NCBI GenBank assembly: GCA_964016885.1
Contig: OZ024760.1
Span: 6,448,001 to 6,512,000, forward strand
From: Eledone cirrhosa
Lineage: Eukaryota
Direction: 5' to 3'
DNA length: 64,000 bases
The translations under genes and the position numbers were made by a program. Every line of letters starts with the position of its first letter. The first letter of the stretch is position 1. Shown piece after piece: positions 6,554-62,696 of the stretch. The notes under the pieces were generated by a model. That model worked only from the letters and a program-made list of their open reading frames with translations. It made no database searches and was not told the origin of the DNA.

Positions 6554-7585
6554 CTATATATGTATGTATGTATGTATGTATGTATGTATGTATGTATGTA
6601 TGTATATATATTCCAAGGTAAGTCTTTGTGAGTTTTACATTACCAATCCTATGACTCTTACAGGTCTAGCCCTGTCTGCTGTCTACTCAATGTATTGAGT
6701 ACCTTGCTTTGGTTGGTTGTGGTTTATCCCTAACCGAAACAGGACCCTAGCTCCTCTATTTGCCTCCCTCTCCCCTACCCTTTGTATTTATTATTATTAC
6801 TATATATATATATATATATATATATATATATATATATATATATATATATATATATATATATATATAAATGAAGTAATTCCATCGGAAAAGTCCAGGAAAA
6901 AAGAGTGCTCTATGTATGCAACAGAGCTTAATTATTATTATTATGTAATAAACAACATAAGGCAATTATTCCATTTACCAGTGGTTTCTTATATATATAT
7001 ATATGTGTGTGTGTGTGTGTGTGTATACATATACATGTTTTTATTCTTTTATTCTTTTACTGGATTGAGTTATTTGAGTTATGATTGCAACCATACACAC
7101 ACACACTGACACATACACACACACACACACACACACACACACTGACATACATTGACACACACACAAAAGTCTGCATATCTACAAAAGACATAAAACATTG
7201 TCATGAAATTACAAATAATTCAGTAGATCGACCCCTAGAGAATAAATGGCCTTGTAATATTAACTCCACCTGAGCTGCTCAGCCACTCCCTGTCAATCTA
7301 ACAAATGATGTTATTGTTCAGAAAATGCAGCTTGTGAAACAACTAACAACAATAAAAATATTTCAATGTGTTTATATTGTCTACTTATCTGTCTTTCTAT
7401 CTATGTGTGTGTGTGTGTGTGTGTATATATACGTGTGTGTGTCTGTGTTTGTGTGTGTGTGTGTGTGTGTGTGTGTGTGTATGTGTGTGTGTGTATATAT
7501 ATATATATATATATATATATGTGTGTGTGTCTGTGTGTGTGTGTATGTGTATAAATATATATATATCATCACGATGATAATGATA

Positions 7586-7900
7586 TGGCCTTGCAATCGA
7601 AAGGTTGTGAGTTCAATTCTCAGACCGGGTGATGTGTTGTTTCCTTGAGCAAGGCACTTTATTTCACATTGTTCCAGTTTACTCAGCTGTAGAAATGAGA
7701 TGATAGGGACTGGGGTCCCTATCATTCCACTGCAAAGTGGTCGTGGAGGTGCCACGGCAAAAAAGCACCCAGCACTCACTGTAAATGAGGTTGGTGTTAG
7801 GAAGGGCATCCAGCTGTAGAAATCAAGCCAGAATCAGTTCCTGTCCCACCCTTGCAAGCAGGGAAAAGTGGACGTAAAATGAAATGATGATGAAATGATG
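7586..7900 (+). mobile_element. SINE family A, lacking the A box
   Basis: Matches SINE A from the anticodon arm to the tail. Confidence 0.9.
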
Positions 7901-8627
7901 ATATATATATGCCTCTATCTCTCCCTCTGTATGAGTGTATATATATATATATATATATATATATATATATATATATGATATACACATATATATATATTGT
8001 GTATATATATATATATATATATATATATATACATATGATATATATATATATATATATACAGGTGATATATACATATGATATATATATACATATGACATAT
8101 ATATATATATATAATATATATTGTATATATTGCATGTATATGATATTGTTGTAATAAATTGTATATAGTTTGTATGTCAATTCTCATGGATGACCTCTGA
8201 CAATGTAGACCATTCATTCATTGACGTAAAACGGTGAATGGAAGAGAAAATAATGCATAAAGAAATAAGAACAGGATTTCTGGTTTACTTAATGCATAAT
8301 ATATAAAGCGCATAGTGTTGCTGGTGTTAACCCACACAGTCACAAACAGAGACATACAGATGCAGACTGATACATACACACACATACACATACACACACA
8401 TACACACACATACACATACACACACATACACATACACACACATACACACACATACACATACACACACATACACATACACACACATACACACACATACACA
8501 CACATACACATACACACACATACACATACACACGCATATACAAAAAACAAAAAAAAACTGCTGCACCTTTTCTATATATCTCTGGATGAGCTGGGGACTG
8601 ATTGGGGGAATTAGTGAAGTCCTGAGA

Positions 8628-9630
8628 AGTTGTTGTTGGTGATATTAAGGGTAATCAGCTGTAGAAGCCATATCAAAGCAGCTGACAACCTCCCTATTGC
8701 TGATGACAGGGTAAATACACCCAGTACACTCTGTAAAGTTGTTGGTGATAGGAAGGGTAACCAGCTGTAGAAACGATATCAAAGCAGCTGACAACCTCTC
8801 CAGTGCTGAAGACATGATAAATACACCCAGTACACTCTGTAAAGTTGTTGGTGATATTAAGGATAACCAGCTGTAAAAAACGATATCAAAGCAGCTGACA
8901 ACCTCCCTATTGCTGATGACAGGGTAAATACACCCAGTACACTCTGTAAAGTTGTTGGTGATATTAAGGGTAACCAGCTGTAGAATCCATATCAAAGAAG
9001 GAGATGACAACCTCCCTATTGCTGATGACAGGATAAATACACCCAGTACACTCTGTAAAGTTGTTGGTGATATTAAGGGTAACCAGCTGTAGAATCCATA
9101 TCAAAGAAGGAGATGACAACCTCCCTATTGCTGATGACAGGATAAATACACCCAGTACACTCTGTAAAGTTGTTGGTGATATTAAGGGTAACCAGCTGTA
9201 GAAACGATATCAAAGCAGCTGACAACCTCCCTATTGCTGATGGCAGGGTAAATACACCCAGTACACTCTGTAAAGTTGTTGGTGATATTAAGGGTAACCA
9301 GCTGTAGAAACGATATCAAAGCAGCTGACAACCTCCCTATTGCTGATGACAGGGTAAATACACCCAGTACACTCTGTAAAGTTGTTGGTGATATTAAGGG
9401 TAACCAGCTGTAGAATCCATATCAAAGCAGATGATAACCTCCCTATTGCTGATGACAGGATAAATACACCCAGTACACTCTGTAAAGTTGTTGGTGATAT
9501 TAAGGGTAACCAGCTGCTGAAGCCATATCAAAGAAGGAGATGACAACCTCTCCAGTGCTGAAGACATGATAAATACATCCAGTACACTCTGTAAAGTTGT
9601 TGGTATTTAAGGGTATCCATCTGTAGAAGT
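8628..9630 (+). repeat. About 107-bp minisatellite (about 9 units) derived from the SINE body
   Basis: Repeating ACACCCAGTACACTCTGTAAAGTTGTTGGTGATATTAAGGGTAACCAGCTGTAGAA...; further related unit at about 9975-10075. Confidence 0.9.
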
Positions 9631-9910
9631 GGAGGCACGTGGCCTTATGGTAAGGGTGTTGAACTTACGATCATAATGTCGGGGGTTCAATTCCTGGACA
9701 GGGTTGTGTATTATGTTCTTTAGCAAAACACTTCATGTCATGTTGCTCTAGTATACTCAGCTGAAAATGATTACCAGCAATAGCTGGGGTTTTAACCCTG
9801 CGATGGACTGGTGTCCTGTCCAGGGGTCTGTCTTGTATTCTCAGTTGCTTCACTCCATGAAACCATGATAAGCACCGGCCTAACGAACATTCTGGCTTAA
9901 GACAGACTTT
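9631..9910 (+). mobile_element. Older, diverged tRNA-head CORE-like SINE
   Basis: GGAGGCACGTGGCC..TGGT head, GGTTCAATTCC B box, degenerate TTTAGCAAAACACTT...CTCAGCTGAAAATG core. Confidence 0.7.
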
Positions 9911-10185
9911 AGTTAGATTAGATATAGCTGTAGAGACCATATCAATGGATAGGTCTGTTCAGGTGTGTCAACAACATGACAACCTCCCTGGTGTTAATGA
10001 CATGATAAATACACCCAGTACACTCTGTAAAGTTGTTGGTGATAGGAAGGGTATCCAGCCTTAGAAAACTATACCAAAGAGAGCCTAAAAAGTTTGAGAA
10101 TCTCTGAACTCTACTGACTAATGTGTCCTTTTTTGTTTAAAACAAACCCCAGCAAACAAACCAAAAAAGACAGTAGTATGTAATT

Positions 10186-10906
10186 TGAGGGAGATGTAGC
10201 TATTATTTCTAACACACACCTCGACCGTGTACAGACTCTCTATTGCCAGTTTCAGGGAGATGTAGCTGTTATTTCTAACACACACCTCGACCATGTACAG
10301 ACTCTCTATTGCCAGTTTCAGGGAGATGTAGCTGTTATTTCTAACATACACTGAGACCATGTACAGACTCTCTATTGCCAGTTTCAGGGAGATGTAGCTG
10401 TTATTTCTAACATACACTGAGACCATGTACAGACTCTCTATTGCCAGTTTGAGGGAGATGTAGCTGTTATTTCTAACACACACCTCGACCATGTACAGAC
10501 TCTCTATTGCCAGTTTGAGGGAGATGTAGCTGTTATTTCTAACATACACTGAGACCATGTACAGACTCTCTATTGCCAGTTTGAGGGAGATGTAGCTGTT
10601 ATTTCTAACATACACTGAGACCATGTACAGACTCTCTATTGCCAGTTTCAGGGAGATGTAGCTGTTATTTCTAACATACACTGAGACCATGTACAGACTC
10701 TCTATTGCCAGTTTGAGGGAGATGTAGCTGTTATTTCTAACATACACTGAGACCATGTACAGACTCTCTATTGCCAGTTTGAGGGAGATGTAGCTGTTAT
10801 TTCTAACACACTGAGACCATGTACAGACTCTCTATTGCCAGTTTGAGGGAGATGTAGCTGTTATTTCTAACACACTGAGACCATGTACAGACACTCTATT
10901 GCCAGC
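10186..10906 (+). repeat. 66-bp minisatellite (about 11 units)
   Basis: Unit GAGGGAGATGTAGCTGTTATTTCTAACATACACTGAGACCATGTACAGACTCTCTATTGCCAGTTT. Confidence 0.95.
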
Positions 10907-61538: not shown

Positions 61539-61943
61539 TGAATGAAAAAACAAAAAATGAATTTCAGAATATTACTAAGAGCCAATGGCTATATATACCC
61601 ATCAAATAGGTGGTTCTTTGTGGTTGATTTAGATGATATACACATGTTCTGATGAGGGTCCAATTAGATCAGAAACTTGATTATTTCTTTAACGTTTACA
61701 TTACTCTATATTTACTATTGTATTTTCAAGGTAAAGGCTTTTTCTTTCATAATATTAAATCTACAAGATTTGGATATTATTTATTTTGAGAACAATACCT
61801 TAACATCAGTTTATATATATATATATATATATATATATACAATGATATTTAATACATGGAAACTATATTTATAAAACCATATTTATTCTATTATATATAT
61901 TTCAAGGGTACCAAAACTTATAAAATTTATAAAAGAAACTTTG

Positions 61944-62004
61944 TATTTTATCTGATGAAAGCATACCAAAGTTTTGGTACCCTTGAAATATATATAATAG
62001 AATA
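61944..62004 (+). ncRNA. Type I hammerhead ribozyme motif in a fold-back H2 element (61838-62142)
   Basis: TATTTTAT-CTGATGA(61952-58)-stem II (TACCAAA/TTTGGTA)-GAAA(61985-88)-TATATA-TA/ATAGAATA. Confidence 0.72.
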
Positions 62005-62203
62005 AATATGGTTTTATAAATATAGTTTCCATTTATTAAATATCATAGAATATTATACTCCAGAAATCTGTTGAGTGCTCTGAATCAGTTATAAACATTT
62101 ATATTTGTTGAATTACCAACAAATTGAATATTCCTTTTGCTTATATATATATATATAGAGAGAGAGAGATTACAATAATCAAAGTTCAGTTTAAGTCATT
62201 TAT

Positions 62204-62252
62204 TTGCTTACAATTGTTTCCTCCAAACCGAGGTTTGGATTCTTCGGAGCAA
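62204..62252 (-). ncRNA. Hammerhead motif with variant core CCGAAGA
   Basis: Reverse complement TTGCT-CCGAAGA-a-TCCAAACC-tc-GGTTTGGA-g-GAAA-CAATTG-TA/AGCAA, then AATAAA. Confidence 0.65.
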
Positions 62253-62509
62253 CTATTTACTGATCTATAACATACTTGACCTCCTTTTCAACCCAAGAGA
62301 CATATAAAACATATGCGCATATTGATCAACAGTGGGGTGACATTCATCAAGTGATATAGCATGGCAATTTACATATACAGGTTACAGGATAAAGGTTTGT
62401 ATAAATAATATATTACCATTAAAGGTTTTATTACATACATAACCATAAATAGCATCCTTAATACTATATATATATATATATATATATATATATATATATA
62501 TATATATAT

Positions 62510-62696
62510 GAGTCCTGGGTTCAATTGGGGGTAACCACAGTAAATGAGGTACCCAATACATTAGTAGAGTACATACAAAATTTAATATGGAAATAGGCTT
62601 CTACAGGACTAGAACTGTTTCATTTATAAGAAATGAGGATTTCTTATGAATGAAACAATTCTAGTCCTGTAGAAGCCAATTGTATATTGAATTTTA
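62510..62696 (-). mobile_element. Family H3 element folded back at hammerhead stem II
   Basis: Palindrome about 62577-62696 centred on ATAAGAAAT-gagg-ATTTCTTAT; tail matches 33505-33575. Confidence 0.75.

Follow-up and report, generated by a model that had tools for sequence, protein, structure and literature searches.

Penelope-like elements (PLEs) of the Hydra clade, which carry a C-terminal endonuclease, are described in the available text of Craig et al. 2021 (PMC8557442) as having a hammerhead near the 3' end, (TA)n targets, inverted 5' copies and a one-sided tail, and all of these traits, together with the same protein motifs, recur in the elements analysed here. They lie in a 64,000-nucleotide stretch of Eledone cirrhosa DNA (contig OZ024760.1, positions 6,448,001 to 6,512,000 of the forward strand), hereafter the window, in which an earlier note had pointed out a short hairpin motif at twelve sites in TA-inserted repeats. 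According to our analysis, which rests on sequence comparison, this motif is a real, clade-wide, paired and covarying cis-element, with two hairpins, H1 and H2, each placed just beyond one of two ends of the copies. A stem-loop recognized by a reverse transcriptase (RT) is a kind already known, while the paired geometry was found in no description that we searched. The tails reported by Craig et al. measure 30 to 40 nt (Naiads, PLEs generally), as against 65 to 145 nt in this genome and 55 to 83 nt in other hosts, and few Hydra families are given there, in contrast to the many of this genome, whose end fragments number in the tens of thousands. By term search, the words hairpin, bulge and initiation are absent from the main text of that paper. 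In the literature compared, the choice of start sites by PLEs and the origin of inverted copies with a one-sided tail are an open question.

The closest biochemical counterpart is the Poseidon RT of Anolis (Frangieh et al. 2024, PMC11167929), for which the available text reports two internal start sites that bound the tail, extension of both strands and a predicted dimer; the enzyme starts at +111 to +118 yet needs RNA to +172, about 55 nt beyond the second start. Our proposal for Hydra elements likewise includes a pair of internal starts at the limits of the tail, extension of both strands and a need for RNA downstream of the start. In the printed anole RNA, a hairpin with a 3'-side bulge can be drawn, by eye only, at about +121 to +147. 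In stringent L2-clade long interspersed nuclear elements (LINEs), a small RNA 3' stem-loop is bound by an element protein and required for retrotransposition (Hayashi et al. 2014, PMC4176376, available text). The likeness lies in a small RNA stem-loop read by an element protein, which for Hydra elements is proposed. In LINEs there is one such stem-loop, which is copied as part of the 3' tail, whereas Hydra elements have two, each just beyond the end it marks, with a conserved base and bulge and a free loop, unlike that of the LINEs. The stringent-LINE class is defined by a stem-loop inside the copied 3' tail of an apurinic/apyrimidinic endonuclease (APE)-type LINE; here the hairpin lies beyond the end and its host is a PLE. 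Non-LTR (long terminal repeat) retrozymes (bioRxiv 10.64898/2026.07.22.740005; PMC4209133) are also short, hammerhead-bearing, PLE-related repeats, but they are tandem non-autonomous units, whereas in the window coding families have left shortened ends and fold-backs, and the available portions of these papers mention no such hairpin. A description of the hairpin was found in none of the portions available of PMC8557442, PMC11167929, PMC4209133, PMC5737381, PMC4176376 and bioRxiv 10.64898/2026.07.22.740005, subscription papers and Repbase/Dfam notes lying outside the search.

All twelve sites were recovered in the window within 1 to 2 nt of the positions claimed for them (the site at 22297 occupies 22296-22322 and that at 55918, on the minus strand, ends at 55920). 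The strict pattern YACTC-N8-16-GAGTRC has eight matches in the window, where 300 local block shuffles give a mean of 0.38 and a maximum of 4, and across the genome (3.0 Gb) two versions of the pattern give 76,864 and 17,691 matches, against 20 and 785 for the reversed pattern used as control. The inner stem covaries in the set from other hosts described below. The spacing that the earlier note calls usual, 40 to 100 nt ahead of a (TA)n run, is borne out at 10 of the 12 sites (40-98 nt downstream), the exceptions being 55920, followed by TA and then (CAT)n, and 60748, which sits 26 nt from (TA)4. Where a hammerhead core is present, it lies upstream of the hairpin, as claimed (33447, 40172, 61952, 17033). 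The description of the carriers as otherwise unrelated does not hold, since 16541, 39268, 22296 and 55920 belong to one family (F0), 33511 and 62549 to a second (F1), and 16905 and 62056 to a third group (F4; 78% identical in their overlap). The remaining sites comprise one of family F3, one of an old family and two degenerate ones, 6684 without a bulge and 60725, weak and with ACTT, neither of which has clear relatives among the loci compared. A descriptor scan, looser than the strict pattern, added two window sites of the compensated GCTC/GAGC form; it yields 2.5 hits per shuffle and so proves no single site by itself.

When copies are aligned at their ends, the complete unit reads hammerhead, short end, H1, tail, long end, H2 and ATG. 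Copies end at one of two positions, just before the hairpin or 60 to 93 nt beyond its start. The hairpin of the window is H1 and lies just past the short end; the long end follows 40 to 100 nt further on, just before H2, which is left out of the copies and is seen right after the long end, shortly before the ATG, in copies whose pseudo-long terminal repeat (pLTR) continues into the open reading frame (ORF). The hairpin thus does not mark the end near which it was described. End mapping against eight natural junction references gave 308 alignments, of which 222 end in a TA run, 29 run through and 57 end without TA. In 197 of the 222 TA-ended copies, the TA run starts 3 to 10 nt before a hairpin (81 at H1, 116 at H2); a further reference, F4b, was excluded because it counts the same copies as F4. 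These 3-10-nt windows hold 20 of the 125 TA dinucleotides available in seven references. A ninth family, HyA, behaves alike (29/36 and 22/24). Upstream of the hairpins, TA is commonest at -6 (41 of 85), followed by -8 (25) and -7 (24). A genome count of the paired-hairpin pattern (2,487 vs 606) is inflated by satellites and therefore served only to locate junction copies. In a family represented by loci L231, L242, L245 and L249 (L numbers denote the loci compared), two consecutive hairpins are followed by another 45-50 nt before (TA)n, so that three hairpins or three ends are possible.

Across families, the motif can be written as RCTC, an inner stem with a free loop, a TH bulge and GAGYRC. 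The structure goes beyond a stem of 4 bp, as an inner stem and a 2-nt bulge are also present. Genome-wide, the compensated outer pair GCTC..GAGC occurs 15,763 times against 2,247 in the control (7-fold), whereas the mismatched ACTC..GAGC reaches only 1.3-fold (6,872 vs 5,227). Covariation was assessed in other-host hairpins with an inner length of at least 9 nt (54 of 89 non-redundant hairpins), where inner pairs 1 to 3 are Watson-Crick in 52, 44 and 39 cases against 41, 20 and 16 expected (0 of 5000 permutations). In all 89 hairpins, the corresponding figures are 85/89 for pair 1 and 59/88 for pair 2. All four pair types occur at inner positions 2 and 3, slid registers pair in 5-12 of 49 cases against 48, 41 and 36 in the true register, and A-T/G-C swaps at inner position 2 recur in several supported clades of a quick tree of 34 rows. 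On the sense strand, G-U pairs outnumber A-C by 12 to 3 (P = 0.018; 15 cells in total). Rfam at its gathering score gave no match in 10 junction-bearing loci, and in the window scan the best 150 of 445 matches were sub-threshold only, mostly to miRNA models.

Many insertions are fold-backs of two arms, and among 103 such pairs we counted 59 short plus long, 9 short plus run-through, 6 long plus run-through, 3 short plus short and 26 unclassified. Pairs of two long ends number 0 of 103; the retrieval of many loci through H1 patterns favours long ends and should then also have favoured such pairs. The unit order, the covarying fold, the fixed spacing and the one short and one long end per fold-back are observed features of these elements, and they are probably best read as follows: the RT binds each hairpin in RNA and starts about 6 nt upstream, each target strand has its own site, and the one-sided tail results. 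The element endonuclease would nick both strands of a (TA)n tract, and the TA-ended primers so released would pair with a UA located 5' of a hairpin at a distance of about 6 nt. A first RT, probably a subunit of a dimer, would start before H2 and copy the tail, while the other would start before H1 and leave it uncopied. With two same-sense cDNAs made on opposite target strands, the insertion would then have an inverted 5' copy, and its tail would stand at one side only. Because no end includes the hairpin that sets it, the signal would have to be read from a template that extends beyond the copied part; this position outside the copy, together with the sense-strand G-U bias, is why we take it to be read in RNA. 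Of the proposal in the earlier note, a shared cis-element stands, being position-fixed and covarying; RT recognition is favoured, but sequence alone cannot separate it from 3' processing.

An unlikely alternative of the latter kind is that the hairpin is bound by a nuclease, of the host or of the element, which cleaves the RNA about 6 nt upstream of it, so that the RT starts at new RNA 3' ends in the manner of a LINE. It predicts identical end positions and the same sense-strand fold, and anole RNA-seq read ends coincide with RT start sites (PMC11167929, available text); the same source, however, has the anole RT initiating internally on uncut RNA in vitro, and cutting by itself leaves the one-of-each-end fold-backs unexplained (59 against 0 long/long). 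We also hold it rather improbable that the signal acts in DNA, with the GIY-YIG endonuclease recognizing the hairpin in cDNA or element DNA and cutting beside it, thereby resolving a longer intermediate. Craig et al. attribute the tail to endonuclease resolution (PMC8557442, available text), the Drosophila Penelope endonuclease requires tail sequence (as cited in the available text of PMC11167929), and the antisense folds are equally stable. Against this, the excess of G-U over A-C points to the sense strand, both the conserved unpaired bulge and the 3' RC are one-sided, and the limits of the tail coincide with RT start sites in vitro (PMC11167929, available text). It is still less credible, and in our judgement highly improbable, that the hairpins act in translational control or in packaging the element RNA while nearby TA microhomology alone sets the ends. 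The closeness of H2 to the start codon in most clusters of other-host loci and the enrichment of TA at -6 would fit, but the ends fall almost exclusively at 20 of the 125 available TA sites, and H1, lying 55-83 nt further from the ATG, has an equally sharp end.

Taking RT recognition of each RNA hairpin as the working reading, we put forward, more tentatively and with somewhat more doubt than belief, that twin-priming is programmed: each hairpin would recruit one RT out of a dimer, the two RTs would prime on opposite strands of the TA tract once it is nicked, and the inverted repeat and one-sided tail would be built in. The rule of a bulged hairpin 3' of the start may, in the same tentative sense, hold in other PLE clades with other sequences. 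A covarying hairpin of 20-30 nt at a fixed distance from each end makes the start-site question of PLEs directly testable, and the hairpin pair gives an exact rule for calling the boundaries of Hydra elements. If portable, the hairpin would be a compact means to set internal initiation by a telomerase-related RT; if the reading is true beyond Hydra, PLEs, the sister group of telomerase, would gain a portable RNA handle that places the start of reverse transcription.

Metagenome and viral contigs scanned with the genome's own alignment yielded no relative, whereas a wider alignment (44 of 120 listed homologues) retrieved 79 metagenome loci and 12 labelled as metagenome-assembled genomes (MAGs). 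These 91 loci form 71 clusters at 80% DNA identity, 47 of them with at least 140 nt of upstream DNA. With the pattern fixed beforehand, a hairpin lies no more than 160 nt from the ORF start in 42 of the 47 clusters, and 26 carry two. Background rates are 4 matches in 161,168 nt of ORF interiors, 2 of 47 for the upstream antisense strand and 0.5% for shuffles. H1 and H2 are 55-83 nt apart in these hosts, and H2 stands about 15-45 nt before the ATG. In seven clusters with both copies, the end falls 6, 6, 7, 7, 8, 9 and 11 nt before a hairpin. Some of the pattern misses, among those listed, carry variants such as GCAC..GTGC by eye. In the published consensi (PMC8557442, File S7), Hydra-1_Ajap shows by eye both hairpins before the ATG, and Hydra-2_Amil and Hydra-2_Ajap show H1 at the 3' end. 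Contigs labelled as bacterial MAGs contain Hydra-type PLE ORFs at loci L349-L360, probably through the binning of animal host DNA into them.

Plain common descent or chance without function is the reading that we find scarcely tenable. In its favour, three families account for eight of the 12 window sites, and most copies are truncated debris; compensatory changes in separate clades, joined to fixed spacing to the ends, speak against it, as does a hairpin kept across proteins only about 40-55% identical whose flanks cannot be aligned. The sharing of the motif is accordingly assigned, from these comparisons, to clade-wide homology among Hydra-type PLEs with no longer alignable flanks, and not to convergence of unrelated elements.

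Several observations weigh against RT recognition of a paired hairpin, or narrow its basis. The strict pattern is missing from 5 of the 47 clusters and present only once in 16 of them; by eye, a clear hairpin is found in only three of the six published Hydra consensi (PMC8557442, File S7), those of Hydra-1_Crog and Hydra-1_Amil being degenerate and Hydra-1_Obim having none. The H2 of F1 is atypical, with a GCAC/GTGC stem, a 5-nt loop, no inner stem or bulge and a distance of 9 nt from the end, and the short ends of family F8 lie mostly at -11/-13. Long ends are over-represented, since many of the loci behind the end counts were retrieved through H1 patterns. Of the 89 hairpins, the 35 whose inner length is below 9 nt were excluded from the covariation test, inner pair 1 of H2 shows no covariation (P = 1.0) because it is a nearly fixed C-G, and the comparison of G-U with A-C is based on few cells. 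Isolated hairpins are weak (-2.5 to -6.8 kcal/mol), and the antisense folds are lower at 7 of the 12 window sites.

As to the carriers, long copies extend into ORFs in F0 (L165), F1 (L161, L256), F3 (L164, L229, L248) and F4 (L162, L163, L237, L252), and all four of these gene-linked window families are assigned to the Hydra clade of PLEs. The assignment draws on protein motifs, scored by alignment against the clade description in the available text of PMC8557442, and on tblastn separation from the genome's Neptune- and Poseidon-type proteins. The Hydra set of features (RT followed by a C-terminal GIY-YIG domain, a CxCX5C linker, no CCHH, and CxxC and CxH around conserved E and N) is full in F1, F4 and HyA, while the F0 protein, from a frameshifted copy, has the CxCX5C linker only and the F3 endonuclease domain is covered by tblastn. 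Among the rows that reach these regions, the N-terminal RWK-type motif reads RW(R/T) in four, and DKT replaces DKG in four. Between a Hydra-type protein and the reference of another, identity ranges from 38 to 52%, and a Pfam search of four of these proteins returned nothing. The insertions have the structure expected of endonuclease-containing (EN+) PLEs, with a partial tandem pLTR, an inverted 5'-truncated copy and a tail at one end. Neptune, Poseidon and Naiad PLEs have a CCHH-type endonuclease. In the non-Hydra elements of the genome (Neptune- and Poseidon-type), the hairpin is missing from all 27 termini and all 8 upstream regions examined, from few families with crudely set termini, and 8-mer searches of Naiad/Chlamys consensi found no terminal hairpin context. 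Neptune- and Poseidon-type carriers had been tried through a Pfam GIY-YIG genome search; their ends lack the motif, and motif matches there are separate insertions. A non-autonomous short interspersed nuclear element (SINE) or retrozyme reading was rejected because long copies of F0, F1, F3 and F4 continue into Hydra ORFs, and the hairpin of a Helitron or DNA-transposon end was dropped after RT ORFs and hammerheads were linked.

A canonical hammerhead core is predicted by pattern in F1, F3, F4, F5 and F7, and none was seen in F8. Upstream of H1, F0 has a variant predicted core, TTGANAAG, with a long stem II and a GTC site (L002, L012, L165, L166, L168, L010); two changes in it would keep the 3-8 pair, and N is variable. 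Hammerhead cores with such variants are known. The F0 hammerhead is not visible in the window because the window copies are cut within stem II. Locus L235 is an F0 copy in which the hammerhead-to-ATG unit is in tandem at about 257 nt, a retrozyme-like arrangement, and a tandem satellite of about 58 nt is made of the F0 H1 hairpin (L210-L225; G000:C1:14.23-14.27 Mb). In F1, the tail that follows H1 (window 33543-33572 and F1 copies) may fold into a small pseudoknot, whose loop and downstream letters seem, by eye, to co-change. Further hammerhead-bearing ends of Hydra families lie at 28531-28615, 29863-29973, 18428-18520 and 30008-30112, where copies stop at the short end or within the tail, without an intact H1.

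Table 1. Hairpins, hammerhead cores and fold-backs located in the window
Feature	Position	Strand	Remarks
H1 bulged hairpin, F0 (Hydra-clade PLE)	16542-16567	+	In tail of fold-back 16413-16613; ORF link via L165
F0 fold-back insertion between (TA)n runs	16413-16613	.	Left, short end (minus arm); right, long end with tail
H1 hairpin, F0 diverged subfamily	39269-39294	+	Fold-back about 39150-39340
H1 hairpin, F0	22296-22321	-	Copy cut about 12 nt upstream of hairpin; tail reaches (TA)n at 22243
H1 hairpin, F0, first base mutated	55920-55945	-	Beside short/short F0 palindrome 56099-56211
H1 hairpin, F1	33512-33532	+	Downstream of hammerhead 33447-33469; fold-back about 33410-33574; ORF link via L161, L256
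F1 predicted type I hammerhead core	33447-33469	+	Pattern match
H1 hairpin, F1 relative, T-G pair in outer stem	62549-62570	-	Fold-back about 62509-62694
H1 hairpin, long inner stem-loop, F3	40277-40318	+	Fold-back 39944-40369; ORF link via L164, L229, L248
F3 hammerhead core and mirror	40172-40208; mirror 40008-40044		Within fold-back 39944-40369; predicted by pattern
H1 hairpin, F4	16905-16926	-	Fold-back 16844-17539, long end left, short end right; ORF link via L162, L163, L237, L252
F4 hammerhead core and mirror	16992-17033; mirror 17432-17473	- (core)	Within fold-back 16844-17539; predicted by pattern
H1 hairpin, F4 relative	62057-62078	+	Fold-back 61832-62141; predicted hammerhead core 61952-61988
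H1-type hairpin, old diverged family	38358-38381	+	77-90% between copies; no ORF link found; Hydra membership inferred from motif only
Shortened hairpin without bulge	6685-6702	+	190-nt insert between microsatellites; family not found among loci compared
Degenerate hairpin, weakest site	60726-60748	+	Eroded copy or chance, may be either
H1 hairpin, compensated GCTC/GAGC form, F8	24998-25024	+	Absent from the earlier note
Hairpin, GCTC/GAGC form, TA bulge	6905-6927	-	38 nt ahead of (TA)n; lies in a 124-nt repeat also present in other loci; absent from the earlier note

Outside the Hydra families, the window contains at 24580-24850 a Poseidon-type fold-back, which matches the 3' end of L071 and has an F8 fragment immediately after it. 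A different terminal motif of about 23 nt, perhaps the equivalent signal of another clade, is common to two non-Hydra PLE families whose hammerheads differ (window 39845-39875 and 63060-63082; L040, L062). Lastly, a fragment on the minus strand at 5832-6554 carries a zinc knuckle and a putative PD-(D/E)xK-like motif and resembles a restriction-like-endonuclease non-LTR element.

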